From: Cyanidioschyzon merolae
Lineage: Eukaryota
DNA: 64,000 nt
NCBI GenBank assembly: GCA_000091205.1
Contig: AP006502.2
Reading direction: 5' to 3' (one strand)
The notes below the pieces were generated by a model. The model was given only the letters and a program-made list of their open reading frames with translations, did not search any database and was not told the origin of the DNA. Shown one piece after another: positions 1 through 49,971 of this stretch. Positions within the stretch are counted from its first letter, which is position 1, and each line of letters starts with the position of its first letter. The translations under genes were made by a program, and so were the position numbers.

Positions 1-1076
1 ACGCACCAGCTTGCTCGTGTGGTCTTGAAAATACCAGGATGCAGTTCCAAAATATGTCCGATGACGCGACCTGCCATCTTCCACCGAAATTGCAACGATA
101 GCGTTCCGGGGACTCCGCAATCGGTATAAAGCACAGGGACGTCGGTTTGGTTTCTCAGTCGATGGGAACTTCTTCGGACGAAACGATTGAAGCGTTTGGG
201 GGGTTTCGCGGAGCAGGCAGCCTATTCAATGTAGGATCGAATTGGAAGAGAACGAGAACATCAGCATCTGTTCGAGCTGCAGTAGATACATTTGGCGGCT
301 TCTGCTACGCTCGTAGAGAGGGCCCATGCAAGAGCACAAACCACTCTGTCGAACCATAGAAGACTTTTCGCCTGACGTCTAGCAGCGTCCTTCGATTCGA
401 TCGCGCGTCATTTCACCGTTTTCCTTGCGTTCGAGCTTTTTCGGATTCCTTTGGGGTTGAGCTGCATTTCATTCCTTCGTACGCTCCGTGTTTTAACCCA
501 TTCGAATGGGTTTTTCTATTGTGAAACGTAATGATTGCTCCACTGGGAGAATCGCGAAGCGTTCGGCATACGGTGACACACCAGAGACACATTTCATCTT
601 TTTTGTGCAAGTACTTCTTCCTCCAAGAATATCCTCATCTAAGGACACACAGACCTGTGTTCATTTTAGAAAACTTAAAGGATGAGCTGGGGCCTGCACT
701 TCAGAATGTCGTGATGGAGAGGCGGTAGCGGGGCGCATCGTCGATAGAATACCACGGTGAGCTGGGAGAGCACCAATTGACACACAGGATACGAGTTCGA
801 GGACTTGTCGCATTGGTGAGTACCGCCAGCGGCAAGAAACGCTTCGAGTTCGTGCACCAAGACTCTAACGCCGCCATCCATATCAGAAGGTATACAGTGC
901 TGAAGACGATACCAACAGAGCGGACGGAATGCAACCTTGAGGGGCAGCCTCCCAGGCTCGAAAAGTGCAATCAGAAGCTGAAACTGATAGCAGGGGGCCG
1001 GTCGAAGAAGGCTGAAAAGTGTCTCCACGTCGGTATTGCTTTACTGTATGGTCGCGGAATGTTCTCGCTCCTCTGA
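1..1076 (+). pseudogene. TnpB/Fanzor-like (IS605 OrfB-family RuvC fold) copy 1. 3' two-thirds only: 5' end lies outside the window and in-frame stops interrupt it (three same-frame ORF pieces 147-359, 531-728, 777-1076)
   Basis: All three pieces lie in frame 0. 'VFILENLKDELG' resembles the RuvC-II ivlEdLn motif. 'FEFVHQDSNAAIHIRR' resembles RuvC-III DxNAAxNI. Collinear protein similarity to copy 2 (42919-43695) includes the conserved C-terminal 'GGRSKK..LHVG'. TAG at 726-728 is in frame. Confidence 0.5.
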
Positions 1077-3343
1077 ACGAGTGAAGTCCACCGACTCGAG
1101 CAACCATAGTTCAGCTGCAGTGTCTTTCCATCCGAATCAACAATAGCCATTACATGCTTTTTCTGCGACTGTTGCCTTTTCCTCTCGCTTGTCTCCGTTA
1201 TCTAATACGTGCGTTCCTGTCCCTCCAGCGTTGTTTTCAGTAGTCGAAAAGTGTTCGTGACAGTGTTCAAGTTCCGATTTCGCCGCTTCGGGCCGTTTTC
1301 CATGCATTTCATCCACAGGGAGTAGTTGCAGACTACGCTTCGCTTGCCATTCGCATCTTGTTTGTTTACAGATTCGACGCGCCCTTCGCAGCGGTGACAC
1401 ATAGTAACGATCATGAATGGGCACATGTGCCCATCAGCTCCCCTTACGTGTGCCGTCCTGTGGCGCATGAAGGCTTGTTTTCGCGTCCGGCTCATGCCTG
1501 TGACGTGTAAAGAGGGGTCCCAGGAATACCCTCCGCCGTTTTTGCGCCCGCTCTAGTACCGAAGGACGACGGGCTTCACCTGCGCGATATCCTCGGAGTG
1601 CATAATCCCCGCCACACGAGCGAGCACACGCTACTCCACTCGATAGAGGATTTGTGGAACGCGATGTCGTTCATGATGATGAAAAAGGCACCGGAAGGAT
1701 AATCCATGCCGGAGACAACGAAAAAGTCAGATCCGTTGATGCGCCCTTCGCGCTACGCGGTAGCAAGCGTTCCACGCGAAGCGACCGATGGAATGACGAA
1801 GATGCGAGTCCCAGGCCCTTTTCCGCACAAACAGAAGAGACGATTGCCCCTGGGGGCATGTCTGGGACGGCGTATCTTGCGGGCACGGAATACGGGGCTC
1901 CGACGGCCACAAAGAGAAGCGGAGCACCCTGTCAAACGGAGCCCCGTGTTTGACGTCACAAGTTCAGTGAACTTTTAGCATGGGCGTGTCAACAGGTCAT
2001 CAAAGGACAAAGTCGATTGATTCTTGCTCGCCAATTCAGGGGCGCGATATGCTACGGCCTCGAGTTGCGTCCAAGCAGAACTATCGAATAGTTGAAGAAT
2101 GCGTGATTTGCGCGTACTCGACGTAAAGAAACGAAAGGTTTCGTTGCTTGTCCATATCCACTGAAGACTGGTATCGGTTGCTTCACGGACGCTTGTTCGT
2201 TGGCGTCACGAACCATCTCGATTCCACTTGCAGTAACGTATTCCAGCGGGAACGCGTCGAGGGGGCCTCTCCTATACGAGAATCGAGGATCCTAAAACTA
2301 AGTATGTATCCTAAAACCGCAACTGTTGCACTTCTAATGTCGATGTCGTACATCTGCAAGCAAGTTCCGGAACATCGAATGACAGGAACAAAGCGAGCAA
2401 TTCAGCATTCCATATCTATCTGACACCAGCATTGCGGACATATGCGCGGCGGCAGGCCGCCCCAGCGTCTCGTGGCCAATCTCTCATGCTTTGGGGTAAC
2501 TGCAAGGTTACCGCCATTTCGAAAAAACCTATGATCAAGGCGGACGCTGTTACCATCAAGCTACCGAGCGCCCCGGATTGCTCTCGATGGGTCCTCTGTT
2601 GAGAATCTGGACTTGGCGGCACCAGCACGATACTATCCAGCTTCTTTGGTGGCGTTCAGAAATGACGCTTCAGAGACCCAGCGCCCTTTCGATAACGGTA
2701 GCCTGCCAAAGCCCGCACGCCTCGGTTCGCGAAACCATACTGCGTCCGTTCAGGCATCGCCGGCGCTCATTCTATCAGTCTAGCTCGTGCGACAACGGCG
2801 AGATAACCTCTAATGAGGGCCGTTTCTCCACCGCCCGTAAAGCATCAGCGTGTCGTTGTATTCGTAGACGGCACGGCGGGCGATCGTGGTGCGCTCTCTG
2901 AGTGACGCTCCGCGATAGCAGCAGGGGCGACGCTGGTCAAGCTTAGGTCGCAATTTGACTTGCGTTTCGATGATCGCCTTGGTCGTTGTTCAGTGCCGAG
3001 TGAGTGCTATTTGTATGTGCGAAGTAGCGAATGTGCGCTATCCCGCAGATGCTCATGACCTAGATTGATAGAGGAATATGGCATGTGCGCGCAAGCGCAG
3101 CGCTACGGCATCTCGCTGGCGGCGGCAAAGACGACTCACTCGCTCATCGCATGCCCAGCATACACCCTACTAGATACGCTCCGGTTCCGTACACATTTTG
3201 ACCACAAATCTGCGCGGTGTCACGGCTCCGTTCACGGCCTTTGTATGCCACGTCGACTAACTGAAAGCACAGCGGATCCTAGGTCGGAACAATAGATCCT
3301 TCATCTGCGAGCCATTGCCGTATCGATCACGTCATCAGATCGC

Positions 3344-4468
3344 TCAGGTTCGTGGTGATGCATGCCCCGTAGAGGCCGCGCTTTTGCCTACCGTGCGAAG
3401 CAGTCGAGTGTTGCTGTCGACATCGGCGGGCATCTCGACGTCACTGGGCTCACTTTCAGATCCGCTAAGACGCGACCCTGACCACGGGACCGATGTCGTT
3501 CCCTTGCTCTGAGACTGACTCTCCGATACGGCTTCCCGTGTCCACCAGAAAGACGCGAGTCTTCTTCTCAACCACGGATACACGCCGAAACACCACTCAG
3601 GATCATGCAGACGTTTCCAGTGCTCGGTCTGCAATTTTGAGAGATGCGCTGCAACCCAGCCCAACTGTTTCGTGCCGTGCCTAATAATTTTTCGGGACGC
3701 CCAGTTTATGAGCGATGCTGGAATAAACTTGATACGCGGATCGAATACACCCACCAGACGGACCCGAGTGCGACCCCGGGATACCGGATGCAGCTCGAAA
3801 CACGCTCGCGCTTCGACGGTGACGGAGCGTTGGTCTGCCACACGCTCGCGCATCCGTTCCGCTGCACGCCATGCCGCACCGTCAGCGGGGCGCACAGAGC
3901 GAATCACAATGTAAACGGACTGGCTGGGTTCATCGAGCGCATCAATGCCTCGCCCTACCAGGTAGATGGTGCGGTCCGCGAAGGGCCACGGCGCATAGAA
4001 GCGTGCGTAAACCGCACGTTGCACCCGTCCACTCGGAACCAGAAGTTTTATATCCCTCACATACCAAAAAAGCTGCCCGAAGAGATCCGGTTCAGCCAGT
4101 ACACAACAGAGGTTCTCGAGCGGTGCACTCAACTCCGCTGTGACGTGGTACTTGTGTAGGACACTGCCGGGAATCCTACGATATCGTACTATCATTCGTT
4201 TTGTTTGCACTGCTATTGAATAGGCGGGATCGCTTTCGTCATTTAAATCTTGGAGAAAAAGCGATAAGTCATCGGTTTCCCGGAAAATCTCCTCAATGAG
4301 GGGTCCGAAGCTCGCAGCACGCGCCGCAGTGATACCCTGCTGCACTAGAACTCGACGCGCAGCAAAGAGCTGCTCCTCCTCGTACAGCGCTCTGGCATCG
4401 GCTATCGCTGGGTTATCCCAGGCATCAAAATATATGCTATCTTCCGGGCCCTCCTCGAGTCTTTGCAT
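3344..4468 (-). CDS. START/Bet v1-like lipid-binding domain protein
   Basis: 374-aa ORF with ATG start. Central region 'AVYARFYAPWPFADRTIYLVGRG...VIRSV' and 'VFDPRIKFIPASLINWASRKII' match the START-domain pattern (pWPlspRDfv ... DpkGxiPxwlvN). Confidence 0.5.
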   Translation of the reverse strand: MQRLEEGPEDSIYFDAWDNPAIADARALYEEEQLFAARRVLVQQGITAARAASFGPLIEEIFRETDDLSLFLQDLNDESDPAYSIAVQTKRMIVRYRRIPGSVLHKYHVTAELSAPLENLCCVLAEPDLFGQLFWYVRDIKLLVPSGRVQRAVYARFYAPWPFADRTIYLVGRGIDALDEPSQSVYIVIRSVRPADGAAWRAAERMRERVADQRSVTVEARACFELHPVSRGRTRVRLVGVFDPRIKFIPASLINWASRKIIRHGTKQLGWVAAHLSKLQTEHWKRLHDPEWCFGVYPWLRRRLASFWWTREAVSESQSQSKGTTSVPWSGSRLSGSESEPSDVEMPADVDSNTRLLRTVGKSAASTGHASPRT

Positions 4469-4639
4469 GGACGAAGCACGTTAGCAGAGCCATACGGGCG
4501 GTATTCGCCATACGCAAACCCAGACGCTCTGAGGCCCACGCGCCTGCTGCGCTTCGTCGGCAATCGCGTCGATGATTTTTTTTCCGATGACAAAACATGT
4601 ACATTAATTCATGGATTCCGGATTGTGAGAGGGATATTG

Positions 4640-5235
4640 GCTTTCGGGAAAGCGTCCATCATGCTGCTGCACCCTACCACCGAGTTCCGTCAACTGTTCT
4701 CAGATGTACTGGTCGTTTTCTATGTTCCTCTGTTCGCAGAGTATCTGCTTTGAGCACCTGCCTTGGCGCCGACACCGGTGGAGCAGATGTATCACGGAGA
4801 GAGAACGGCTTTGCGATGCCACGGAGGGCGTCGGCTCGAGACATGATTCATTCAACACGGGGTCGGAGTACATAATTATTCCGGGAGCCTGCCAGCTGCG
4901 CAGACAGAAGTACTGCCTGCGGCAGTGCGAAGCGATTGACTTGGAGTCCACTGCGACCAGGGCGACGCCCAAACGCAGCATATCGGCTCCTGGTCACTGA
5001 ATAAACTGCGTTTCGAACGAGCTTCTCAGATCCCTTCACGGCACTAGGCACTGGGAAGAGCATGGAGCACTGGTCTGACAGACTCGTCCGGCTCGCTGGA
5101 CCTCTCGCCTAGATGATAAACTTTCGACAATGCGGAAAGCTTTCCCGCATTTCAACGCTTACCCTAGACAGGGAACGGGATAGTTATCTCGTTGCTAGTT
5201 AGAGGCTCGTTTTTGTTCCTATAAATGAATACAGG
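4640..5235 (+). repeat. Degenerate ~0.5-kb dispersed repeat, copy A (partner at 40790-41265). Contains an intact 98-aa Cys/His-rich ORF at 4704-5000
   Basis: Collinear DNA similarity to 40921-41265 (clear), with weaker similarity out to 40790. Shared 21-mer gactcgtccggctcgctggac sits at about 5085 and 41106. A 123-nt in-frame indel separates the copies. Confidence 0.6.
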
Positions 5236-6594
5236 ATAAACTAGTACCGACTCACGGGCACCGCGCAACCTTTTTTGGCCAACCCTATGCTTTAGATTTC
5301 AGTTTATGCGCACATGCTTCGAGACTGAGAGGGTGCCCCGCGAAGTGCGATCGCTTTAGCTCCTCGGATCTCGTCTTCAGCACCGCACATCGACTTATAT
5401 TGGTAGCAACGTTGAAGTCTCGATTCAGGAACTCCATGCATTAACTGATGCGGGTTGAACTCATCCATACAGGGTTTGCTAGAATTTGTGCCTTCTATGC
5501 AATTTGGTGCTCTGTCAGCTCGCCGTACTCTTATTTAGCCGAGGCGCTCCGCTGTCTTCTCCCTATCTCGACATTATGAAGTGAACACCTCAGCCCGTAC
5601 CGTAGAATATTAAAATGAACGCACTCCTTCATGCCCTTAGGTAGCGACAGTCCCCGAGCGAGAAGGACTTGCGGAAAGAGAAAGCAGGGGAATGGTGATT
5701 TACCATGTTGTCCAATCAAGGCCGTCGCCAGACCTGCAATGAAAACGTCTTCAATGATTCAACGGAATGGTTGGCGCTGTAGTTTGAGCCTTCTCTACGA
5801 GCCAAACTGAGGCTGCCAGATGAATCCACTGTAGCTAGAATAGATGAAGATGTCGTCATTCTCTACGTGCTCGATCGTACATACAACGGGCACTCTGCTC
5901 CCCGAATACCCATATACACTCCGATCCTTTCATCCGAAGCAAGTCTCATCGACTGAGAGAAAACAAACCGACTTCTCCGTCTTCACATCGACTGCAACGT
6001 TCCAGGAACGCTGTCGTTGCGATTCCGGTGCTAGTTGGCCGTGTGTGCATTAGGACGCTTTGTTTGTGTCTGTACATTAGTGTTTTCGGGACCAAACGAA
6101 CGACCCGTTGTGAAACATTGACACCCATGTCGGCTACGATCGTCGCATTTGCTTTTTATTACGTGCTCTATAAATCGTGTTCAACCGCCGACCGCAAGCA
6201 CGCCTAGGGGGTGGCAGTTTCTGATGCAGAGCGCATCTGTTTTCTTTCTATGATCCTGAAGCACCTGCGTTCTATTGTATGACCGACTTGAATGAGGAAT
6301 GCAGTCCTCCTTGCACTGTTCAGTATAGAATATATATCCTATAGGCAATTCGTCTACAGTCTATGCTGGGAATGGTGCTATGATTTCAATCCCCTGCTGT
6401 AAACTGCAGCCGGAGCAGTGCAAAACTGAGTAGAAAGCATACAGGAAATCAGCGCGCTTGGCGCGAACACGAGCGTGCACATCCGTGGCATGCACCCGCG
6501 GATCAGCAGCCAAGGGCACGCAGGCGTCTGATGAGGTTTCCCCCATTTCCCGACGGGATACACCAGAGCGTCTTCCGCGCAAACAGGCCCCTAC

Positions 6595-6699: not shown

Positions 6700-7806
6700 A
6701 TGGTGGAACCGTGTGCCCCAACGCCTCTGGTACCTGAACCCGGGCTATCTGTGCCTACAAGTTCAGAGCAAGGTCCAGGAACTCCTGGAACGGAGCCGCC
6801 GCCGCTTGCAGCCGAGGATTCGAGTGACCTGTTGGAGCTTGAGCAGCTCGAGGCTACAGACCTGAACAGGTGGCAGGAGTTTGTCACCGATCCCAAGAGG
6901 AAAGCGTGTGTTCTGGCGGCGCGCTCGCTACGCACACTCAACAAGTCAAAGCTGCTGAGATACTACCTCAACGCAATCGTTCAGCGCTTCACGTGCGCGA
7001 ACTCGAAACCGAGCATTGTCGACGTACACTGGCTTATTCATTTGACCAATACCTTGGTGGAGAGATGTGCGAGTCAGCTTTACTCTGAGGAGCCTGAGAA
7101 CCAGGATCAGCATATGCTCAACGCAATGCGGCTGGCGATACGGACGGTCTCAGGGGCAGGCGCTGCGGTCATCCAGGCATGGATCCCAGCAATGCGCTCA
7201 GGAACGATGGCATGTTTGTTGGCTTTGGGCGCTGCCCCTGACCGCCTCGCTGGGGCTCTGCTGGATCGCGTTGTCCGCGAACCGTACCAGGAATCCGAAT
7301 ACGCTCTCGCTATTGGGGCTCTGGCGAGAAACGCCCCGCGGGCGTTGCTCTTGCACGAAGCTCTGGTGCAGCGTAACCCCGCGGCAATAGATGCGATTGT
7401 GTGCATGCGGGAGCGACTGGCTAGTGCTGGAAACAGTACCGCTACGATACAAGCGAATGCTACAGCAGAGACAGGATCTGACGAGCAGCTTTCGCATTGT
7501 ACATGGCTGGATGCGTTGACAAGGCTGGCGCGAAATGAGTTTGCCCTGTACGCTCTGGGTCTGGACACACGCATGACAGCAGAAGACGAAGAGCGCTTAC
7601 GTCTCGACACTGTTGAGCGCATCCGTGCAGCCTTTGATTCCCCTGATGTGTCGCTCCGAGCGAGTGCTGCTCTCGCGGCCGTGGAGGCGCTGCGCTCTGG
7701 CCAAGCACGTCATCCTTCGGAACTCTCGATTCCAACGTCTCTGAAACCGTTGCTGATCGAGATCATCCGACGGACGAAACGCAAGCGGGACGATGAGGTC
7801 TCCTGA
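6700..7806 (+). CDS. Hypothetical protein, possibly HEAT/ARM-like repeats
   Basis: 368-aa ORF from the first in-frame ATG. The track ORF starts at a GTG inside the TG microsatellite. Ala/Leu-rich helical repeats; no family recognised. Confidence 0.35.
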   Translation: MVEPCAPTPLVPEPGLSVPTSSEQGPGTPGTEPPPLAAEDSSDLLELEQLEATDLNRWQEFVTDPKRKACVLAARSLRTLNKSKLLRYYLNAIVQRFTCANSKPSIVDVHWLIHLTNTLVERCASQLYSEEPENQDQHMLNAMRLAIRTVSGAGAAVIQAWIPAMRSGTMACLLALGAAPDRLAGALLDRVVREPYQESEYALAIGALARNAPRALLLHEALVQRNPAAIDAIVCMRERLASAGNSTATIQANATAETGSDEQLSHCTWLDALTRLARNEFALYALGLDTRMTAEDEERLRLDTVERIRAAFDSPDVSLRASAALAAVEALRSGQARHPSELSIPTSLKPLLIEIIRRTKRKRDDEVS

Positions 7807-20419: not shown

Positions 20420-21416
20420 TCAGAGGGTATAGCCGGTTTCGTTTTGCACTTGTGGGGAAGGCATGAGCGTACGTTTGCAGTGTTTTCAGCACGGATGGTG
20501 CTCGACGTGCCACAACGAGCGCGCCTGCGCGTTGCGTTGGGCTGCTTGTGCATCCCTTGTCTCGATTGGTGATGAGCGCTTAGATATAGCTACGCCTTTC
20601 AGAACCGTTTTGAACGGGTGCCATTCAAGTCAAGCGAAACAGGAGGACCCTTGATGTCTTCGAGGTGTCGGCAGCTGAGACGCGACATTTCGGCGAAAGC
20701 GCCTTCCATGTTCTTGACCCTCCTGCCTCGCGGGGCGGCACATTTCGTCTGCATAACTGCTGCTCATACTGGAGGCAGTCGTGTCGCTAGCAGCGCCCAA
20801 TATGCCCACATGCTTTCTGAAGGTGTGACATGTCCCAAAAACATCACTGCACGCTTGAATGAGCTGCTTTACAGCTCTCTAGTGTTCGTAAACGTTTCCT
20901 CCCAAACAGAGACGCCTAGTCGATGTCGAGAGTCCACCTGTATCCGTGTTCGATGAACATGAAAACTGAAATGCAAGCTCTGTTCCTGTTTTGCAATTAT
21001 TATCGAACGTTCTCGTTCATAGACAGCATCGAGACGACAAGTGCTGCAATACGGAATAACGGATTCACGCGTCGTTCCAGGATTTTCGGTCGTCTGTTTG
21101 ACTTGACTCCTTCGCCGCTTCGCCGCTGGATATCGTAACGTCACCGGATTTAAAACGATTCGCGACGCCTTCGAATGCGGTTTTATAAAATAACCAATAC
21201 GATTGTCAAATTCGTACGTGGAATCAACCAGTCCGCTCCTTTCGTTACGCGCAGCACGCGTGACTTCAGCGTGCCTCAAGTCTTCGTTTTTCCTATTTCA
21301 AGGCAATTCGTGGGCCCAGCAATGTGTATCTCTGGAATGGGGAGACAAGAAACGTGATTTCAAATCTTGACGACTTGTTCGCAAGCTCGCACCAAATCTT
21401 CGTTGAGCTTGTCATG

Positions 21417-21983
21417 TCAAAGAATAAATATATTCCGATCGAGAGACAAACTACTGCTCTCTATACATCCATCGATGGGACGGCATTCGACAGCATCAAA
21501 TACACCTCTCCGGGGATGCGCTTCCTGCGTCTCTCGTCTCTTCGGTTTGGATGGGAAAGGCTTTTGGACTCGGAATTCAGTCAGTCCAGCGATCGTTTCA
21601 CACGGAGTCGTTGTCACCGTTTTGCACGAGGAGAGCGTAGACAAATGCAAGTTTCTCATCTTATTTTCCAGGCAAATTTTCTCTTTCTGTATTTCTCTCA
21701 TCATGGACAACATTATTTTCCACGAATCATTTTTTGAATGCAATAGCGTACGCTTCCGTGTGCAGCGGACAGAGGACTCGCCCAGTATATCGTCCATGAG
21801 ATGTCTGGAATCATACGGTACAGGATCGGGCCCGAAAACGGAGAAAGACATCGAGAAGAGCCCTCTCTGCCCAGCATGGATGTGCCCCGAGCGATGAAGC
21901 ATGCGTTCACGCGCCACAGGGCTTGGCTTAGAAGTGTATATTTGACGGACGTATGCGCACACTTGAACAGAGCCGAAAGTCAC
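21417..21983 (-). CDS. ORFan paralog family member A. Lacks ATG at the family start position (track start is GTG), so possibly a pseudogene or with an upstream exon
   Basis: Protein-level collinearity with 29814-30455 and 49972-50547: hydrophobic N-terminus, 'RCTRKRTLLHSKNDSW', 'KPKRRE'. Many synonymous differences at DNA level. Confidence 0.45.
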   Translation of the reverse strand: MTFGSVQVCAYVRQIYTSKPSPVARERMLHRSGHIHAGQRGLFSMSFSVFGPDPVPYDSRHLMDDILGESSVRCTRKRTLLHSKNDSWKIMLSMMREIQKEKICLENKMRNLHLSTLSSCKTVTTTPCETIAGLTEFRVQKPFPSKPKRRETQEAHPRRGVFDAVECRPIDGCIESSSLSLDRNIFIL

Positions 21984-22542
21984 CGCTGCGAGGCGCGTAC
22001 CGATACTGGGTACAAAGACTATGATGATAGCGAGCCAAGCGTAGATGGCAACTCCCGTCTGTGCTTGGTAGGTGTCGCAAACAGCCAGACGCTGCCAAAT
22101 CGGGAATTCAATGCTGCCATCGCTACACGTCTACTGCTGCCATCGTAGCTCGGCGGAAGGGAGAGACCCCGCGTATTTAAAGCGTGGAATAAGACAGTGG
22201 AAATGAAAGCAATCGTGGAAGAAGTCGGCAAAGGCTGGTGTTGCTGATACAGGAAAAGACCCAGAGTTCAGAGCATACGGTGGAGCTAGGGGACCTGTCC
22301 CATTTTCATCTGACATGGTGTGTCTATCGGTGCGCGTGCACATTCCGCTCTAACGAAGCCGTGCATTCGTCTGGTAAAATAGGTCGGGCGTAATCCGTCA
22401 GACTTACGTCCCGTCTATAAGAGAGCAACGTTTCACTCTCGCGACTGTAATGAAGTGTTAAGAGTGGCTTTCGGCTGTCTCCGGGGCTTCTGGAGGTTTT
22501 ATTTCCGGACTCGTTGCAGCGTTTTTTCCCCTGGCCGCTTTC

Positions 22543-23193: not shown

Positions 23194-26100
23194 CACGTGC
23201 ATCTGATGTCGCAGCTCCGAAGCGGACCGCATGACCGCTGCGGAACGAAGTCTCGAAGCAGCGTTCTTCGTGGATCATGTTCGGCGGGCAAGCGGATTGC
23301 CCAACATGAATCCTGTCCACAATCAATATAAATAACAGGTTCGGAAAGATGACATGCTCCAGGTATCATCCCAAGTAACCGGCTTTGTAGCCCGTTAGTG
23401 CAGTGTGCTCGCGGATGATTGTGCGCTGGCGTATGGAATGCTGGAACACCATGATCGTCCACTCTTCCGCCGAGAAAGGCGTTATCGCTGTAAATATACG
23501 GAGCTCTGGCTTTGCTGGATTGCTGAAATATACCACACCAGTGCTTTAACCCAGGGAAGCATGAAATTCCATAACTGACATTGTCTGGATGTTTCATCGA
23601 AAGTCTGCAGCGTTTCAGCAAAATGCCCGCACAGAGTGCTCGACAACTTGCTCGACAGAAAGCCGCCAGACGCTCCGAAATTAGTCCTCATTTGCTGGAT
23701 GTTGATCCAGGCTTTCGGGTCTCGGCGACGAACGCTTTTAAGCGCGCATTGCTCCACGTGGAATCGCACAAGAGCAAGCCGCTCACTGTCCATGGCCTCG
23801 CCTGATGACGTTCGTTCAGCATACAATACTTAATCTCATGCGACTGCATCTGTTGCACGCTCTTGCTCTCTCCCTGTTTCAGCGTGCAGTGATGCGCGCA
23901 ATGCATGAATGTCATCCCGAATGCATCGATAGGAATCGTGTAACATCTATTCCTGCACTCGTCGAGCACGCTCTTCCGCGTAGCCGGACTGCAGAGCATG
24001 CGCGTTACGGCTTGTGTACAGCAATAGACTACCATCAAAGGACGCTACTTGCGGGCCCTTTCCTTCTCCAACCCATTGAACATGTTTGCGAACACCAGCA
24101 TCCTGCCTCTGTCCAACCGAAACCGGCGGCAGCGCCAGGGCAGTCTCAGGTACCGCCGATGACCGTCTGCGTAAGCCATTTGGACGCTCATGTAGTATCT
24201 GCTTGAATCTTATGACTGGGCGCTTTCTGCTCAATGCAGTACTCAAAGCGTCAAAACGGGTCAAATTGCCGCCATTCCGCTTGATAGTATGCCTCGCTGC
24301 GTACGTCACGCCAGGCTCTCGATCATACGGATCCCTGGGAAATTTGAGCAGCAGAACCTGCTTTCCGTCCGTGTCTCTGGCTCCATCCCTTTGATAACGA
24401 GGTACAGCGACGGCCATGACGTTCGTAGACCAGGGATCCGAAGCCATCACGAAGTCTGTCTCATCATCTGTGGTGAACGGATGACAGTGGGTCTTTTTGC
24501 ACGAACTGGGCGAAGGATTTCACAAAGTGCATGTAGATCGATATTCCGCCGATCTCCACCGTCCATGCAAACCGCTTTCGATTCCTTCGAAGTACATGAG
24601 AAACCTTGAACGAGCGCCGCCAATGCGCTTCGCGAGGTGTTTCAAACGCTTCATTCTTGCGTGCAGAGACCAGCCGTTTTTCGATGAGAAGGCTACCTAG
24701 TACACTCGAGAAATGTCTGCGGTAAATCATGGACAAAGACAGAACACAGCTGGACCACATCAAATACTAGCTTGACGAGGCGACGGCACTCGCATCCGCG
24801 GACGACATCTGCTATGTCCTGGAGGGTTCTGTTGTGGATAGCGCCGTAGCGCATGCTCCAAAACAGACAGGGATCAGTTTTCAAGCATCCTTTGGATTCC
24901 AATTCCGCCATTCCGAGACCTGTACCAATACAATCAGCCCTGACGAGCAGAGGCGACGGTTGCGCTTGATGCTCAAGCTCGTCAACCCCACGAGCTCAGC
25001 ATTCGCATGCATTGACTCCTCAGGAATCCCCACGATCAGCACCCACTTTTCTGAGCCAGAACGATGAGGGTATCGGTGGGAAAACGTCCACTGGGTTCAT
25101 CTCACCAAGCGCTCGAGACTGACCGGCATGCACTTTCTGAGTTTGGTTCAATACCTTTTTGGCATATGTGCTGTGGATCCCCCGATCGCCCAGATGGCAC
25201 TGCGACGCATCAGGGTATTCTTGCACACGTCTGTGCAAATGCCGGATGCCACGATGCGGCCGTACTGCATCTTCTGTACCGAATATCAGTTCTTTTGTCG
25301 CATCGGGTTATGATCGAAAAGCTCTAGAGGAAAGTAGACAGCTGGCAGCCGTGCGTACGGAACTCCTTAGGCAGCTGGTTGACGAGGTGTATCAACTGGA
25401 AGGAAGCTTGGCGAAAATCCATCGTATTAGAAGCTACTCGATCTTGAACGGCGTCCTGCAACTTACAGTTTCATGGATGCGAATGACTCGCCTACTGGGC
25501 CAAGAACGTAGAAATGGCTTTTGAAAACAGAGACGACGCTTTCAGCTGGACTGGACCCGGCAGAATCGGCTGGCACAATGAGCAGATCAGCGAGAATCTC
25601 AGTTGCTTATTTCCTGACCGCTATTGATTGATGCAAAGCGATGTTGTCTAAGTACGGGATAGAGCAATATGAGAAGAAGAAGCCACGAAGAGAGCGGTGA
25701 CACGACGCATAAGGGGTTTTGAGCGATCCTCTCTGATTGTAGGACTGGAGGCGACCATGCGATAGCGTCGTCGCTGGGGCTAATGTTCTCGGCCTTGTCA
25801 CTACTCTCGTCTGTACGGATGGTGGTTCGCCCCTTTTCCAGTACCCATATACAGGTCTAATGCTTCACTCGAATAAATTCACGTCGAGTGCGATGTGCAC
25901 CAGCCCCCTTCTGATGTAAGCGTTCGCTCTTCCGTAGGGAATCGATATGGTGTTTTTCGACGCGCTACGGGTTCACATATAAACGTGCTTTTCTTGTCCA
26001 TCCGTGTCTTTTCGTCGCTGTTCAAATCAGCGATGCGAGAACTTCACATCCCGAACTGGAATTTATTCGTATTTCGTAGAGAACGCATGGGATGAAATGG

Positions 26101-28839: not shown

Positions 28840-29813
28840 ACTTTACGTTTGTGGCGGAAGTTTCCCTGATCACGGCCCTTTTCGGGATGCAGGACGTCGC
28901 AGGTGTCGCGCAAGTTCGAACGTCGATTCGCGCACGAGTTGAACCGCCACGGGCGCCGGGTTACGGGCAGCCGACCTCCGCCTGCGTCAAGCCGGCGCCC
29001 GCAAGTCCATGGCGCAATCGTTCTCTTCTAGATTGCCGCACGGGGGGGGTCGTTGAACAGATTAGGCCTGAGCACTGAGGGCATACGCTAGACTAGATTG
29101 GGAGATGCCGAAAATCTGCGCAGGGAGTGGTGATCGGGCCCAGGATATCCAGCAGCGCCAGTGCGTTCGAGGGAGTGCATCGCTAGCGGAGCTATGCAGC
29201 GGCTTCGATGCTATTCGCTTTCGATCGTATGCACCCCGCAAGACGCGGAGAATTCGTCAGAGACACGTTCAGCGTGCGCGCCGCTGGTGAGCCGCTTCAG
29301 AGGCGGGTCCACGAGCGCACTACCTGTGTCTACTGGCTTGGGCTGTACCACAGGTCAGATAAAAGCGCAACATTGAACTGCTCAATCTGCTCCTGGCTGT
29401 CGAATTTTCCCGAAATTTTCTAAAAGCACACCCTCCACATTCCAAGTGCAGCAAGGTCTTACGGGTTCATGTATAGTTCCAGCATGCTCTGTCGTCATTT
29501 CAAAGGAACTCCTTCGCTGCTTGCCGCTGGAGTCCGTTTCCTCGCCGAAATCAAGATGATTTGGAACGTCCCTGAACAAGGGTATGTAACATCAGCGATA
29601 TCATCACAAGTTCACACGTTGAAGCTTCGACTCCTCTTTCCGTACTTCCAGCATGCCCATATCACGCATTCTTCATGCGTTTGCTCTTTCTGTTTTAAGG
29701 TAACTTGCGTGCGCAGCAATGCGCGAGGCTTGCTTGATGCGGCGAAAAGCTCGACGGCATTCGTTGACGACTTGTTCACGAGCTCTTGCCTAGGGTTCGC
29801 TGAACTTTTCAAC

Positions 29814-30455
29814 TCAAATAATCGGTTTCGTTCCAGAGTCAAATCCTCCCTGCTTTCTGTCCAGAGATGAAAGCGGATTCGACAGCAGCGGCATGGTACC
29901 TCTCACGTGATATGCTCCTGGTAGCTCCCGTCTCTTCAGTTTGCATGGAATGAGATCTTTGACTCCGACTTGAGTCATAGCAGTGATCGCTTTCTGTGAA
30001 GCATCCGTCATCGCGTTGTACGAAGAAAATCTAGAAGAATCGAAATTTCTCGACTTGTTCTGCAGTTGGGATTTCCCTCCGGATGCTCGGTTCATCGCGG
30101 GCAACATTGCGTTCCACGAATCCCTGATTGAATGGAACAGCGTGCGCTCGCGCGTGCACCAGATAGAGTACTCGTCGAGGGAATCCTCCAGAAGAAACCC
30201 GTGATCATGTAGAGCGGCATCGTGTGCGGAAACGGAGGAGAGCATCGAAAAGAGCCTTCTGTTCTCATGAAGGTCATGTACTGAGCTTTGCAGCGAGCAT
30301 TCATGCGCCACAGGCGAGTGTTCAGAGCTGGAGGTGGTGTCGCGGGCATATGAGAACACCTGACCACAGCCATGTGCCACCGTTGTGAGGCGCGTACCGA
30401 GGCTGTACACAAACAATATGAAACTGGAGAGCGACGCTTCGATCGCAGCTCCCAT
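29814..30455 (-). CDS. ORFan paralog family member B, the only copy with an ATG at the family start. Hydrophobic N-terminus (possible signal peptide or anchor)
   Basis: 'MGAAIEASLSSFILFVYSLGTRL..GQVF', 'DEYSIWCTRERTLFHSIRDSWNAMLPAM', 'KLKRRE'. ATG verified at 30453-30455. Confidence 0.5.
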   Translation of the reverse strand: MGAAIEASLSSFILFVYSLGTRLTTVAHGCGQVFSYARDTTSSSEHSPVAHECSLQSSVHDLHENRRLFSMLSSVSAHDAALHDHGFLLEDSLDEYSIWCTRERTLFHSIRDSWNAMLPAMNRASGGKSQLQNKSRNFDSSRFSSYNAMTDASQKAITAMTQVGVKDLIPCKLKRRELPGAYHVRGTMPLLSNPLSSLDRKQGGFDSGTKPII

Positions 30456-31506
30456 CTCTGAATGAAATGCGCCAACAAGTACCTGACGCTGCGAAATCGG
30501 GACATGAATGCCGCTATCAACATCGCTCGAATGCCGGCAACGGAACTATAGGTCCTGGGGAGACCGGCGTATTTCAAACTGGAGATAAGACACGGAAAAG
30601 TAACCAGTCTCAGAAGAAGCTCCCACGGTCTAATGTTGATTACAATTGTAAGAGTCCTAAACTTTACAGTGCAAGCGCGAGATAGCTGAGTGAACCCCTT
30701 TATTTTAGTCTGACATGCGTCTAGAGCCCGCACCAGAAATCGCTGTCCATACTCAGCGATTCAGTTCGGCAGCGGGTAAGCATCGCGAGTGTATCGAGGC
30801 GGTAAGTATTCTGTTTATCGAAAGGGCATGTACTTTGAACACTTGCTGTCTCGAATACAGTACGTCAGCATCATAGACAGCTTTCTCGTCTGCACCGTGC
30901 CGGCAACGTTTCCGAGCATCCCATTCAGATAGCACGGATCACCATATGAGCGGATGTCTTAGCACGACGTATAGCATCGGTTCATACACTATTATCGATT
31001 AGTACGAGAAACCATGCCACAGCGTCGCCGATTTTCCCGCCAGCGATGCTGCACGCACGGCGGAATGCGCACTGGTCGCATCCGATCTGGCTTCGAGAGT
31101 TTTTCAGCAGGTGCGATCAGCAGCAGCAACAGCAGCAGCCGATACTGTGCCCAGAGGCCTTTGACAGCTATTACAGACCCTTCTCTTGCGCTCGGGAAGG
31201 ATCGAGAACTTAATTCCGGAGATCAAGAGAAACGCTGGCGTCCATGGTCGCCCATTCGCCCGGAGCGGTGACAGCTAGCTGTCCCTCGAGATCGAGTAAG
31301 AGGCAGCATTCCTCAGCGAGGTGCTTGCTCGACCAGCATATCCGGGCATTGGACTTCAGTTCCCAGCGGATTCAAAGTCTTGTGCACTGCATGTCATTCT
31401 CCCGCACAGAGCCGAATTGGCGCGGCGTCAAGGCACCGGATTATGTCCTACGCATGCCCTGAAGCATGTATACGTGGACACGGCGCTGAAAAGAGCACCA
31501 AAGTAC

Positions 31507-37353: not shown

Positions 37354-38060
37354 TGTGCCCATAGATAGTACTGGCGCGCCAACCAAACCAACCAGCACTT
37401 CATCGGGACAGCGAGCGGTACCAGGCGAGTGCGTCAGTATGTGACGCACCAGGCACTAGATGCACCCCGCTTGGTTGCACGCGGACGTTATTCGCCACGG
37501 TAAGTAGAGTTTGGGTTGGTATGCGTGCATGGCACAGTGTTTTGCATATTTGGTCCAGCGTGCACTTTCGTTGTGTGCCCATGGCGATCTCTCAGCTAGC
37601 GACCGAGTTCGTCATAAATACTCTTGATGCGCATCAACCGCTTTCCATTCCCCTGCACCAATCATCCGAACTCGCCTTGCAGTCAGCGATCAACACCAAG
37701 CTCTTCAGGATTGGTGCGCGCTGCTCCAGAAACATTCGCGTACAGGCATGCTGAAATATTATGAGTCCGTCGTTTCACCCCAATTTCTCATGCATGACTT
37801 TATCAGAATTTGATGCTCATTATAAACGAGGCCGGGAATATCGTAACTTTTTGTCTCTCCTCGAGACTTTTGATATGTGAGGCTGGAGAGCCTTTTTCGC
37901 TCTGGGACATGTTTTTCATTTTCTGTCACGCGACGAAAAAGTGTAGGTCGTTGACTCCTCTCATTCTGGCCTACAGCAGCGCCAGAATAACGCAGCACCC
38001 GTCTTCGTTGTCGTCACAATTCTATGTGGTGCCTCGACATGGCCAGCCTGCCCTGCCCCC

Positions 38061-38222
38061 GCATCTGACACGCTTGCAGTGCAGCACTTTGTGGACCCGA
38101 GCAAGATACGACCTCCGTTCTTTTACTTTCGTGGCTTCCCCTGCATCTGACACACTTGCAGTGCAGCACTTTGTGGACCCGAGCAAGATACGACCTCCTT
38201 TCTTTTACTTTCGTCGCTTCAT
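38061..38222. repeat. Tandem duplication, 2 x ~82 bp (about 95% identical)
   Basis: Direct reading: gcatctgacac(g/a)cttgcagtgcagcactttgtggacccgagcaagatacgacctcc(g/t)ttcttttactttcgt(g/c)gcttc repeated. Confidence 0.75.
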
Positions 38223-39076: not shown

Positions 39077-40470
39077 CTATAGACCGACGTGCAGACGTCT
39101 CCCCGTCTTTTTGGACCAGCCACCTACTACTGGTTTCAACTCCTTCCCGTACAGTTCGACCCTGAGGGGTTGCCCCATAAAGCTGGATCGCGTCAGTCCC
39201 AGGGGTCTTCTTTGCAGCACCGCATATCAACTGACATTGATGGCGGCTTTGAAGTCTCGGTTCACAAATTCCATGCGTTTCTTGCTGGCGCCGCTGCTTG
39301 TACTCACCAGTGTAAATCATCCTCGAAGTCGTGGCGTCAGTGCTACACCAGTATCGTCGTCGCCGTCCCGTCGGGCAAACACCATTACTGGACTATCCCC
39401 CTACTTCGTCTTCGCCACTTGCTCTTTTCCGCTCGATGGTCGGCGAAAAGGGGAATTTTTCGTTTCCTTTCCGGGAGCCGGCGATGATGGCCCTTCAGGA
39501 TCCCCGACTTTCATATCCATACCTTTTCCTTGGGGTTTATCTCTTCAAATGAACGCACTTCGAACGCGTCTGCTATAAACCGCGAATAAGCATTTGGTGA
39601 CGCACATCTGGATGTGAATCACAATCGAGATGAAATCCATAGCATTGAACTCCTGTGCCATCGGAGCACCGCGAATGTCTGGCACGCGAGGCGCCCAGGG
39701 GACTGAGGTCCGTCCGCCCTACACCAGGGTTGCTGACCCGAACGCTGCGTACCGGAACCGCGAAGGAGCTTGCCAACTCCTTAGTCAATAGTTTGGTTGG
39801 GTTGTATTGGCGTACGCCATATTCGCCTGACTGCGTTGCAAGGTAGCGTAACTGCTTTTGAAACGGAGCTAGCCCTGGTCCATGGTTCGAACGTTGCGGG
39901 CGTGATGCGCGGCCCCATGCCCCGGAGGTTTGCCATTGAGGGCTTCAAGTTCTCGCTCAATTTGATCGTACCGTTTTGCGCTGTTGTGTTCTTTGGTTCC
40001 AGCGATCACTCCTGGCTCGAGCAAGCTGTCGAGCGGTGGCGCTACGTCCAGTATCCCGTCAACGAAGAGTCAACGCTGACCTCCGCTGAAATCACAAGAA
40101 GGGTGTTTAAACAGCCGAAAACCGGGGCAGCTGAGGACCATCGAAAGTGAGCGAGTCTCGCGAAAGGGCGCCGCCCTTGCGCCTTCCGGAAGACACCCGT
40201 CTGGTCACTCCCGATGAGGTTCTGCAATGTTGCTGACGATCTCAACAGCAGGATGCGTGGATGGAAGCGTGGGCTTGCATGCTCGTCGATACCTGAAATC
40301 GAAGAATACCCAGGCCTGCGCAGATAACAGCATCGGTTCAGAAGCCAAAGTCGCAGTCTCCAAAAGCAGATAAGAAATGACCTCGGAACGGCCGGCTGTC
40401 AGACACAGGCACCAGCCACCGCATATCGAAGAAGCTCGCTGGCCTCTATTAGACATCGTCATCTTACCCG
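39077..40470 (-). pseudogene. TnpB/Fanzor-like copy 3, degenerate (at least two in-frame stops, frame changes). 5' extent uncertain
   Basis: Minus-strand translation gives 'TLVSTSSGASKKRMEFVNRDFKAAINVS*' (RuvC-III-like), then 'QPLRVELYGKELKPVVGGWSKKTGRRLHVGL*' collinear with copy 2's C-terminus. Upstream piece 'ARLAHFRWSSAAPVFGCLNTL' parallels copy 2 'ARLRKNFYCGKQRAFANFFNQL'. Confidence 0.5.
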
Positions 40471-40789
40471 AACGCTCACATCATTCCTTGTGAAAAAGCC
40501 ATGGACAACGTAACGCCGAGATCGAGGCCTCTGTGCTGCATAATGCTTGCAACGAGCACGTTGGTAATGTCTGGTGTCAGCGATTTCTCCCAAGCGCCAC
40601 AAGAGATAAACGATTGTATCTCAAGAGCTCACATATAGGGAACGGCTTGCCTCGTTCAGCGCTCGCTTCGAAATATTTTTAGCCCTGTCTGCGAGGCGAC
40701 AACGCGTATCGTAATGCAGATTTTTCTCTTCGACAGAACCTTGGCACAACCTAGCTATCCCCGATCGCAGCGCCTGTTCGCAGCGCACA

Positions 40790-41265
40790 GGGAAGCATCA
40801 ATCGTTCCACCTGCTTCCAAATTCCACAAGCCGTGCTTTCCCCCGAAGGAACCAGTAATTTTTACGCCATATCGTGCGCCGAGTGCATGCTGTGAACACC
40901 AGCCGTAGCGCCTAAACCGCTGGAGCAGGTGCATCACGGAGACGGAACTGCTCAGGCGCACCACTGAATGCGGTGCAACCAGGGCCACCAGCAGACGCTG
41001 CCTAAGCATCATTAGTCCCGGAATAAACCGCTTTGAAGACGAGTAGAGCAGGTCTCGCAACAGCACCTGCCACTGGGGGGATGGGTATGAAGCACGAGCC
41101 TGGGAGACTCGTCCGGCTCGCTGGACATTCCCTCGAGAATGTAAAGTTTCAGCAATACGGAAACCTTTCCCCTTTTTGACGTTTATCGTAAATGGGGAAC
41201 GAAATTGTTATATCGTTGCAATTAAGTCGTGAGTCTCTGTTCTTTTTCCTATAGTGCGATCGATA
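40790..41265 (+). repeat. Degenerate ~0.5-kb dispersed repeat, copy B (partner at 4640-5235). Lies about 250 bp upstream of the first candidate 5' exon of Fanzor-like copy 2
   Basis: Collinear DNA similarity with copy A. Reading frame equivalent to A's 98-aa ORF is broken by a TAG (40906-40908, W to stop) and a 123-nt deletion. Confidence 0.6.
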
Positions 41266-42166
41266 GGCGCACCTGGGATATCTGGCAGTCTCGAGACACG
41301 ACGCTCACGTCACCGTTGAAGGGGAACGCGATCCTGATCGTTATTATGTTGCTCTAATGTACGAGTAGTAGTTACTTTATAATCGTACCAAATTATAGTT
41401 TTTCAGGTCTATTGTGTTTCAGCCCTCAGGTTAGTATACTCAAGTGTTTTTTCGCGGTTTATGACAGAAGCGTTCAAAAAGCGTTCTTGTTCAAGAAACT
41501 AGAAAAGCAAAGTTATGGAAGAGGAAATGGAGGAGCATGAGGGCACAGCGTCGCCGGCTGCCAGAAAAAAACGGAAAGCATGGCGGAGCAAAGAGGAACA
41601 GGAAAAGACGAAGACGCGGAGGCCGGAGGCCCTACGTCGAAGGCAGCGATAAAGACGACAGTACGACGAGACGGCGGTAAAAGCCTGTCTTCTTACGCAT
41701 ATCAAGGATCCGTACAGGAGAAACCTGCGAGATGCCATCAGAAACCGAGTCGATTCGTACTCCAGGAGTGTTCGTAACGCCTCTTCAGGACTAATGCATT
41801 TGGTGAAGGAGATGTATCGCGACGTGGTGGATTCGAAACCTTCGAGATTACGGAGGAATTTTTCAACATGACCTTTATTCGCCACCTGATGGTTGGCAGA
41901 GGGGAAGCGTCGAAGAAAATGAGCGAGTGGAAGCCCTCCACAAAAAATTACGCCAAATGCCGCGTCGACGCTACTCTATACAAGGTTGATGCGGATATTT
42001 ACACCTACGGTGCGATGAAGAACCATTTGACCATGAACCTCAAACGCTTCATGATACGCGCCGTGTTTGCGCTCTACCCGGGCCTGTCTCGTAGAGGAAT
42101 ATGGACCATCGCCAATTGCATCACAAACGATAGTAAGAATGAACGGGGATCGAATTCGTCGACAAG

Positions 42167-43695
42167 ATGACATCACACGGGAGAAAGAATAAAGATTCCT
42201 TCATCCGCGCGGCTATTCAAGAGCACCGTTCGGTCTTGGGGCTTGTCAACCCAGCAGAAAAGGTATCAGATATGAAAAAAAGATGGAGAAAGATGTTATC
42301 TCCTCATGCTGCGCTATTTCGTGTTTTTGACCGACGCCTCGAACGCAAAACAGAGATGGAGGTAGGTGCGGGACACAAAAGCAGAGTTGGAGCAACGGAA
42401 GGCTACCCTTCAGGCGAAGCGCTTCAACGTCTTTCGGTTATGCAACATCAAGTCGCACTTTGTGAATATCGACTGCAGAGTCGTTCATGGCATCATGAAG
42501 GATATCTGAACGGTGCTCGGTGTAAGCAGGGAGGAGTTCACCGGGGAAAACCGGGAGACGTACTGGAAGCATATCTTCGGCTTCAAACGTGTCAAAACGA
42601 GCAAGCAAAAGTATGCATAGGCATCAGCGAAAGCGATGGAGTAGCCACATGTGTACACTATCAGCGCCTTAGGGTGAATCGTCCTGTTCCGTCTTCAGTA
42701 TCGCCAGTGGCGAAGCATGAGGGAAACAAGAAGGCGGGTCCTACGACGCAGGAGGTGCGGGAGCATGACTTTGTGGTAGGCGCGAACCCCGGAAACACGA
42801 ATATCATGACCATCACAGTACCCAAGCTTGCGGAAGATGGTATTGAAGGCAACCTATGTCAAAAAGACACGCGTTTGTAAGGTTCTAAAGATAGAGACAT
42901 TACTGAGAATCGGGAATAATGAATGCAAGAAAGAAAATTGAGACATGGAATGCACGAGTGAGAGAGCACCTGGAAGCTATGAGCGAGGTGACGAGCCGAG
43001 GAACGGACTTTGGAGCTTTTCGGGAGTTTATGGATGTTCGTGTTGCCCATTGGGATGCACTGTGGGAGGAGTATACCAAGCCCCGGTGGGCTCGTCTGCG
43101 AAAGAATTTCTATTGTGGGAAGCAGCGGGCGTTCGCGAATTTTTTCAATCAGTTGAGTGCCCCGAAGGGGGACGAGAGTCAGAGGCTCGTAGTAGCGTAC
43201 AGAGCAGGGCGCTGGAAGATTCAAAAAGGGTGTACGCCAGCTCCAACGACGAGGGTGTACAAGGAGTGCGCACGTCGTTTCGTTACAATACCGATAGATG
43301 AGTTTCGAACATCGTATACACACCATGAGCTGGGTTGTACACTTCAGAGAGTGGAGATGCAAAAGTGCCAGAGGAGCCCTGAGGATATAGCAAAGTACGG
43401 AGCGCTGACGGAAGAGCAAATGGAAAGGAAGGCGAAAGTTCGAGGGCTACTCGCATCAGTGAATACAACGAACGGGAAGAAACGGATGGAATTCGTGAAC
43501 CGAGACTTTCATACCCCTATCAATATCAGGAGATGTGCAGTGCTGGAGAAAAGACCTCCAGAGTTGACGAGAGCCAACTTTGTTCGACAACCTCTCGAAG
43601 TCGATTTATATGAGAAGAAGTTGGAAGCAGTAGTAGGTGGCCGGTCGAGAAAAACGGGGAGGCGTCTGCACGTCAATTGGCGACTTTTTGTCTAG
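42167..43695 (+). CDS. TnpB/Fanzor-like (IS605 OrfB-family RuvC fold) copy 2. Two exons (42167-42876, 42930-43695) joined across a 53-nt intron. Possible further 5' exons (Lys/Arg-rich NLS-like ORF at 41515-41652; ORF 41868-42170) not resolved
   Basis: 'FVVGANPGNTNIMTIT' fits RuvC-I vGiDlGixNlaT with D to N. 'ARLRKNFYCGKQRAFANFFNQL' is the conserved inter-motif region. 'PIDEFRTSYTHHELGC' is the TS motif with zinc-finger Cys replaced. 'GKKRMEFVNRDFHTPINIRR' is RuvC-III-like with D retained. Splice joins ...KDTRL|KKIETW... in frame. Confidence 0.55.
42877..42929 (+). other. Putative 53-nt spliceosomal intron (GTAAGG...AG) inside Fanzor-like copy 2
   Basis: The stop TAA at 42878-80 lies inside a consensus donor GTAAGG at 42877-82. 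AG at 42928-29 restores the downstream frame (phase 2). The joined protein is collinear with TnpB architecture. Confidence 0.45.
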
Positions 43696-43771
43696 GGCGG
43701 GTTTCTCGCCACTACTGTACACCGCGGGTATCAACGTTTTTCTTCTGAAAGGCGTTTGTTTTCAGGAGTGG

Positions 43772-49390: not shown

Positions 49391-49971
49391 GGCGCAAGTG
49401 CACAGCGCACTGCGTCGCCGCTGGTGACAAACGCACCAGCTGGGTGTATGTCCAGGAGACGTTGCCAGCGTCTCAACTGGTGGTTTCGAGTGTGGTATGC
49501 GATCAGCGAAAACGAACAAACGTTACACTCGGATGCGCAACGCGTTCCGAGAAGCCGAAAGAGACCTCAGTCGCTCCGGATACGATTCTGGATAAAGAAA
49601 ATCTCAGAGCACGATTGCTCAGGAGAATACGGAAATGTCGGAATAAGAAATGGAACCGGTTCTCCAACATAGCATGACACACGCTTATTATTGGGTCGCT
49701 TTCCGTTGTTTTCAACGCAACGCTTTACAGGATGATTGCATGTACGCTTCGTTTTGCGACCTCTTATACCCTGTTTCAAATACACTGGAGTCTCCTTTGT
49801 CTCCAGCGCCGATGTCAGCAGGCGAGGCATGTTGAAGGCTGCGTTATCGCCCCCATTTGCGAGCACTGAGCTCTTGGCAACGGGGTTCATACACAGACGG
49901 TAGTTACGATCGACGCCTCGATTAGCATTTTCATCTCGTTTGTACACAGCCGCAATACGCTATTCGCAACG

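Follow-up and report, generated by a model that had tools for sequence, protein, structure and literature searches.

What kind of sequence is the degenerate repeat of about half a kilobase that occurs, in one orientation, at two distant places in a 64,000-nt stretch of Cyanidioschyzon merolae 10D chromosome 20 (the whole of this stretch is referred to below as the window), and what does its second copy have to do with the Fanzor-like gene that it abuts? A sequence-only reading had placed the two copies at 4640-5235 (copy A) and 40790-41265 (copy B), with ~70-75% identity, and had suggested that copy B is the 5' module of the element carrying the Fanzor gene, be it its left end, its promoter or an N-terminal exon, and that copy A is a solo remnant. 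The source was established by exact matches of four proteins of the window to C. merolae 10D entries (BAM83335, BAM83347, BAM83356 and BAM83339) on a 1,621,617-bp record.

The existence of two same-orientation copies with this level of identity was borne out, far above chance. Self-BLAST of the window aligns 5053-5223 with 41078-41253 at 72.3% identity across 177 nt (E 1e-18). With MAFFT and with a global alignment the similarity reaches about 4585-5231 / 40725-41266; the global alignment has 365 matches and 121 mismatches, or 75% over aligned bases, and the local alignment score is 126, as compared with 20.4 +/- 2.3 and a maximum of 29 in 200 shuffles. The identical 21-mer noted at about 5085/41106 belongs to the longest exact run between the two copies, which has 22 nt (AGACTCGTCCGGCTCGCTGGAC, 5080-5101 / 41105-41126). 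The proposed extents had to be revised, in that both copies start ~55 bp further to the left.

The repeat pair and the CMe-1A consensus

A Fanzor1 element of C. merolae, CMe-1A, was described by Bao & Jurka (2013, PMC3627910) as a 3169-bp consensus representing ~150 copies that are ~80% identical to it and have no terminal inverted repeats (TIRs). The same paper (Fig. 8D) reports TE-N2_CMe, a separate repeat of ~70 copies that over its whole length shares 95% identity with the 5' 635 bp of CMe-1A. We took the CMe-1A consensus from Additional file 2 of that paper (Mob DNA 4:12) and aligned it to the window by blastn and nhmmer (Table 1); assignments to TE-N2_CMe rest on its published 95% identity to CMe-1A 1-635, which serves here as proxy for the Repbase sequence.

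Table 1. Module copies, Fanzor1 sequences and short elements, with their positions on the CMe-1A consensus (positions are those of the window unless a metagenomic locus is named)
Feature	Position	Strand	Consensus position or content	Support and remarks
Copy A	4585-5221	+	1-636	very probably a complete solo TE-N2_CMe-type unit
Copy B, left part	40733-40972	+	6-245	nhmmer E 3e-22
Copy B, right part	40973-~41248	+	366-~636	runs on into Fanzor1 core
Rest of CMe-1A copy after the module	41249-43754	+	~270-bp spacer, Fanzor1 pseudogene, ~59-nt 3' tail	
Third, partial module copy	46946-47148	+	24-230	nhmmer E 6e-20
Fanzor1 3'-end fragment	678-1035	+	2733-3093	nhmmer E 4e-41
Fanzor1 3'-end fragment	5245-5603	-	2732-3093	nhmmer E 3e-40; tblastn aa 577-724
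Fanzor-like "copy 3" of the sequence-only reading	39082-39643	-	internally deleted CMe-1A fragment without module	nhmmer E 1e-23 and 6e-40; blastn
Short-element family	4-1049	+		
Short-element family	5229-6110	-		
Short-element family	L037 5649-6317			
Short-element family	L051 1275-2265			

The CMe-1A consensus begins with CGATGACAAAAC..., coinciding with the left edge of copies A and B, and continues from the module into the Fanzor1 ORF. Copy A, which is 637 bp long, is aligned to consensus 1-633 by blastn (80.7%, E 2e-167) and to 1-636 by nhmmer (E 5e-127), with 82.5% identity in a global alignment, and its similarity to all other copies ceases at both edges. In copy B, where the module is ~76-80% identical to the consensus and the left part is also matched by a five-copy profile (40725-40972), consensus 246-365 is absent and position 245 is directly joined to 366. 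This deletion had been described as one of 123 nt that keeps the frame; ~120 nt are missing, and the net length difference over the ORF span is 121 nt, so that the frame is not kept. Taken together, copy B and the gene that follows it, previously called Fanzor-like copy 2, correspond at 84% and from end to end (40733-43754) to consensus 6-245 plus 366-3169; blastn by itself covers 62-240 and 367-3169. The window also contains a third, partial copy of the module (E 9e-25 with the five-copy profile), which is kept in the orthologous contigs L001 and L002. Breakpoints recur near module consensus ~240-250: two independent partial copies (46946-47148, and L051 4809-5038) end there, and an internal deletion common to copy B and the metagenomic locus L007 (consensus ~241-366) begins near the same point.

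Judged by these alignments, copy A is very probably a complete unit of the TE-N2_CMe type, and copy B the left end of a decayed full-length CMe-1A. The consensus alignment therefore supports the proposal that a Fanzor-carrying element has the module as its 5' or left-end part, whereas the description of copy A as a solo remnant holds only in its first half: the copy is solo, but instead of being what is left of a deleted full element it would be a complete, discrete 635-bp unit, given that TE-N2_CMe has been amplified alone and that four further solo copies end near ~636. Copy A comes from the same organism as TE-N2_CMe, has about the same length (637 vs 635 bp), is 81-82% identical to CMe-1A 1-635 and has the same traits, being without TIRs, old (~80% to the consensus), dispersed and solo; nothing substantive differs. 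In the CMe-1A consensus the module makes up the first 635 bp and a 734-aa single-exon Fanzor1 ORF begins 270 bp past it, whereas the copy at 40733-43754 is without 246-365 and has its ORF in at least four frames. The arrangement of module and Fanzor gene is already known, having been published in 2013 and deposited in Repbase. Neither Fanzor nor TE-N2 is mentioned in an article of 2024 that deals with C. merolae dispersed repeats (PMC11050394). The significance of the present observation is thus slight, as it finds again, in two decayed copies, the published relationship between TE-N2_CMe and the 5' 635 bp of CMe-1A.

Dispersed copies, their edges and the coding question

A metagenome scan with a 20-mer of the A/B pair retrieved 18 loci. 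Among these there are orthologues of copy A (L015 and L016), orthologues of copy B (L001, L010 and L017) and three further paralogues (L006/011/013/014, L005/018 and L007), whereas L003, L004, L008, L009, L012, L019 and L020 were discarded as chance 20-mer matches, being GC-rich and bacterial-looking, with similarity over only 20-35 nt. A search with the frame-1 peptide of the consensus returned only six ORFs, all lying within other copies of the repeat, and the contigs that carry them added six independent loci (L036, L049/50, L037, L046/47, the L038 group and L051-53), one of which, L051-53, holds a partial module (consensus 23-249). Contrary to the possibility, raised with the sequence-only reading, that module copies elsewhere never associate with Fanzor-like ORFs, the module is joined to Fanzor1 in five (copy B, L018/L005, L007, L036 and L049/50) of ten independent loci, drawn from the window and from metagenomic Cyanidioschyzon contigs, and stands solo in five (copy A, the L011 group, L037, L046/47 and the L038 group). 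In L007 and L018 it is continuous with the Fanzor gene as in copy B (2.4 kb contiguous, 74%); in the L011 group no Fanzor sequence was found within the locus.

All ten independent loci have the same left edge (..CGATGACAAAAC..) between unrelated flanks, and the solo copies (copy A and four others), whose flanks are likewise unrelated, start at consensus 1-6 and end at 633-640, with one ending at 665. Each of the ten copies is 76-82% identical to the consensus and only 61-72% to the others, except for the pair D/E (84%), and divergence is near-uniform along the module. This pattern is star-like, as would be expected of an old burst followed by neutral decay, and the ~70-75% identity between copies A and B is what it predicts for two decayed copies of one family. 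In all likelihood, copies A and B are old, independently inserted and now inert relics.

The same dispersed copies refute a reading of the pair as a host segmental duplication, or as a common host regulatory region, in place of a mobile repeat. Such a reading could draw on the position of copy A, since a divergent host gene (3344-4468), which encodes a START-domain protein, has its start codon ~115 bp from where the copy begins; yet no paralogue of that gene is found beside other copies, the flanks of the ten loci are wholly unrelated although the two edges are the same, and the published copy numbers (~70 plus ~150, PMC3627910) also argue against it. We give it practically no credence.

No TIRs were found at the ends of 4585-5221 or of 40733-43754, and no target-site duplication, in the form of matching flanking duplications, in the five solo copies, on which grounds a MITE was rejected. 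A Helitron was rejected as well, the ends reading (T-run)CGATGAC... and ...CTCTGTTCTTT, with no TC/CTRR ends and no A/T flanks. A T-rich run (TTTTT or TTTCT) lies directly 5' of the consensus start CGATGAC in nine of the ten copies, and was seen at window 4574-4584 and in L018, L037, L038, L046 and L049; the run reflects a preference for certain targets, or else it includes a few terminal bases of the element that have been overlooked. A 24-nt block (GGAGACTCGTCCGGCTCGCTGGAC) that appeared invariant across five paralogues was considered as a functional motif and dismissed, since the loci had been fetched with that very 20-mer; copies found by the other route have 1-4 mismatches in it, and the published consensus has one.

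With regard to coding content, the 98-aa Cys/His-rich ORF reported at 4704-5000 is indeed present in copy A, and the reported change of W to TAG is real, copy B having TAG at copy A's TGG. It could be argued from this that the module is, or derives from, the gene of a small Cys/His-rich protein, intact in copy A but disrupted in copy B, and the published consensus does hold a 118-codon open stretch in one frame, the peptide of which matches six ORFs; these, however, all come from other copies of the same repeat. TAG stands at copy A's Trp codon in the consensus and in copies B, C, D and L046, that is, in four of the nine other copies, and stops occur in the frame of copy A's ORF in eight of those nine, the stop-free exception (E) having the deletion of ~120 nt and an out-of-frame length. 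When codon positions were counted and copy A's ORF was projected onto ten other sequences, substitutions proved to be even over codon positions and no ORF was shared across copies; neither a Pfam match nor a homologue outside the repeat family was found. We therefore regard a protein-coding origin as extremely improbable; in view of the TAG of the consensus and of the other copies, the stops and the lack of codon periodicity, the module is not an N-terminal exon either. Because the consensus carries TAG where copy A has TGG, the ORF of copy A is a secondary accident, and we take the module to be non-coding. We also considered whether its right end holds an intron (GGTAAG ... YAG) and rejected this: the donor in copy A is GA, the module-less relatives are without the AG, and the published ORF, which has a single exon, does not begin until 270 bp later.

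Three other repeats were observed in the window. A direct repeat of 571 bp (53745-54314 / 62454-63024) is 97.9% identical and far younger than the other repeats of the window, and 38053-38220 consists of two tandem copies of a ~82-bp unit (94% identical). Another old dispersed family, unrelated to CMe-1A and ~65-68% identical between copies, occurs at 21367-22224, 29712-30619, 49886-50643 (inverted) and 62848-63583; in L011 a copy (7301-7597) lies ~190 bp beyond the right edge of the solo module, and in L007 a copy (543-1203) interrupts the Fanzor gene.

Fanzor1 sequences in the window

The gene that follows copy B has its ATG at 41515 and its stop at 43693-43695. A tblastn search with a consensus-derived query of 734 aa covers residues 10-734 of the CMe-1 protein (85% over aa 461-734), but between 41542 and 43692 the reading frame shifts through 1, 3, 2 and 1, and residue 46 is followed by a stop; this is a pseudogene, not a spliced gene. 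The CMe-1 consensus protein, of 734 aa, is encoded by a single exon and starts with MEKEVEDPGGPVSPAAGKKRK..., and the NLS-like ORF at 41515-41652, which had been taken as a possible first exon of copy 2, corresponds instead to residues 1-46 of this protein, frameshifted in copy 2. RuvC-like D/E/D catalytic motifs (GADPGNTN, IPIDEFRTS and VNRDFHTPINI) can be read in the ORFs 42167-42880 and 42919-43695, the consensus having NRDFNAAINI. The Fanzor-like protein had no match in Pfam, in NCBIfam or, by single sequence as well as by profile, among PDB sequences, an AlphaFold2 model of the protein P0002 built on a shallow 20-sequence alignment was of poor quality (pLDDT 38), and a protein search with the Fanzor-like ORF returned 258 relatives, all metagenomic. 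Membership of copy 2 in Fanzor1 rests on the alignment published in 2013 (PMC3627910) and on the motifs.

Several further Fanzor1 fragments are present (Table 1). A tblastn search with a long relative of the Fanzor-like gene, later refined with the family consensus, placed one near-full copy at 41515-43695 (+), C-terminal fragments at 678-1035 (+), 5603-5245 (-) and 39334-39082 (-), and two distant copies, which are described below. The one on the minus strand next to copy A ends 24 bp from its right edge, so copy A is not isolated from Fanzor sequence, and the locus formerly called copy 3 consists of two parts (39643-39397, consensus 785-1017, and 39334-39082, consensus 2844-3093). The fragments at 678-1035, 5245-5603 and 39082-39334 all stop at consensus 3093, leaving 17 nt to the stop codon and 76 nt to the end of the CMe-1A consensus; their common stop suggests that there is another 3' boundary that recurs, or that they form a subfamily of their own. 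We also observed a family of short elements of ~0.9-1 kb, in which ~600 bp unrelated to CMe-1A precede the terminal ~360 bp of the Fanzor1 gene; the fragments at 678-1035 and 5245-5603 belong to it. The two in the window, aligned by self-BLAST (73-368/6039-5743 and 607-1014/5672-5266) and homologous over 4-1049 / 6110-5229, flank the START-domain gene and copy A in a tail-to-tail arrangement, the 3' end of 5229-6110 facing copy A, and the family may be non-autonomous, keeping the Fanzor 3' (putative guide-RNA) region. In addition, two much more divergent Fanzor1-like pseudogenes at 23698-25478 (-) and 55346-57029 (+), with ~30% amino acid identity to CMe-1 and nhmmer E values of ~1e-18, point to the presence of another and older lineage of Fanzor1 in C. 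merolae, for which one family only is given by Bao & Jurka (PMC3627910).

The neighbourhood of copy A also bears on whether the module could be a structured RNA. In TnpB and Fanzor systems the omega RNA is encoded just past the 3' end of the nuclease gene. Copy A, when read on the minus strand, occupies such a place, following closely on the Fanzor1 3' end in the 5603-5245 fragment, so that it might be read as the omega RNA of this neighbour, and the module includes a palindrome (5129-5151, AATGCGGAAAGCTTTCCCGCATT) which in copies D and E reads GGCAACATTTGCC, a possible compensatory pair change; this palindrome is too little for calling a conserved hairpin. Nevertheless, the homology of the Fanzor fragment stops at 5245, short of the module, and in CMe-1A the module is found at the 5' end on the coding strand, which is the wrong end for an omega RNA. 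Rfam gave no match even at E 10, the folding energy is no better than that of shuffled sequences (z -0.12 and -0.79 for the two strands), the nearly uniform divergence along the module counts against a structured RNA, and the 24-nt "invariant" block is an artefact of how the loci were found. A structured RNA is, in consequence, a very improbable reading of the module, and the left end of CMe-1A remains the preferred one.

Heads, cores and the mobility of the unit

In Fanzor loci fetched via two other proteins, homology to copy 2 starts just after the module, at 41267-41272, equivalent to consensus ~661-671. In related metagenomic Cyanidioschyzon contigs, the module-less cores L021 (784-1030), L034 (2508-2760) and L035 (1-45) have a different 5' head of ~250 bp, with the breakpoint at consensus ~647-671. 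Since there are cores with another head as well as solo modules, module and Fanzor1 core are separable units, and the three module-less cores also make clear that the Fanzor element can do without the module. Among the metagenomic loci collected, no solo copy of the alternative head, "Y", was found. At L038 2529-5805 (and in L039-L045) a module-less Fanzor1 core (731-3148, -) and a solo module (4-665, +) are arranged head to head, ~150 bp apart.

A mechanism can be proposed in which the 635-bp unit would carry cis-acting left-terminal sequences recognised by a putative trans-acting transposition machinery. The unit could then transpose by itself or, if the event extends to the 3' end of the neighbouring Fanzor1 core, take that core along, and the module, 270 bp upstream of the Fanzor1 ATG, may supply upstream promoter sequence. 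TE-N2_CMe has only its 5' end in common with CMe-1A, whereas a non-autonomous derivative as a rule retains both ends of the element it comes from; this counts against the explanation preferred here.

It is conceivable, on the other hand, that TE-N2_CMe and the Fanzor1 core are elements in their own right and that the module is not the left end proper of the Fanzor element. It would then be a landing pad or a neighbour, Fanzor-type elements preferring its 3' edge for insertion, or a one-ended read-through move that began in TE-N2 would have captured an adjacent core on a single occasion, giving the CMe-1A composite, which was then amplified. The separability of the two parts fits this reading, solo modules having their 3' end at ~636 and module-less cores having another head, and the 3' edge of the module is met by Fanzor-derived sequence in three configurations: at the CMe-1A junction; at copy A, where 24 bp separate this edge from an inverted short element; and in L037, where a forward-oriented member of the short-element family lies at a distance of 58 bp. 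In Mucor, moreover, Fanzor1 subfamilies have a common 3' end and different 5' regions (PMC3627910, Fig. 8A). Against it, the same junction of module and core occurs in five unrelated loci and in ~150 published copies, so that the composite moves as one unit whatever its origin; the cases of adjacency are few and lie in TE-rich DNA, where chance clustering is possible; and the alternative head "Y", not found solo, also counts against two elements. On balance we hold two separate elements to be unlikely. Somewhat bolder, and in our estimation rather improbable, is the idea that TE-N2_CMe is more than a non-autonomous relative of CMe-1A, namely the mobile head of a TIR-less, one-ended (read-through or copy-out) mechanism, with CMe-1A arising by run-on into the core, or that Fanzor elements home to the 3' edge of TE-N2. 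If true, a mobile head or homing would explain the sharing of the 5' end only, the alternative heads and the three configurations at the 3' edge of the module.

What the locus offers beyond the known relationship between TE-N2_CMe and CMe-1A is an entry to the question of how Fanzor1 elements move with neither TIRs nor a transposase, and to that of why a 635-bp unit with only the 5' end in common is amplified alone. The metagenomic relatives, in which alternative heads stand on a Fanzor1 core, are a small addition and not a discovery.

CMe-1A resembles IS200/IS605-type TnpB elements and characterised Fanzor loci in that there are no TIRs and no obvious target-site duplications and that a TnpB-like RuvC nuclease is the sole ORF. 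It differs from them in being without TnpA or any other transposase, and in that the module stands at the 5' end and has no omega-RNA-like properties. The closest parallel to the variable heads is MCi-2 of Mucor circinelloides (PMC3627910, Fig. 8A), in which one 3' end is combined with different 5' regions, much as the cores related to that of C. merolae vary in their head; unlike in MCi-2, one of the alternative heads in C. merolae is also an independently amplified repeat.
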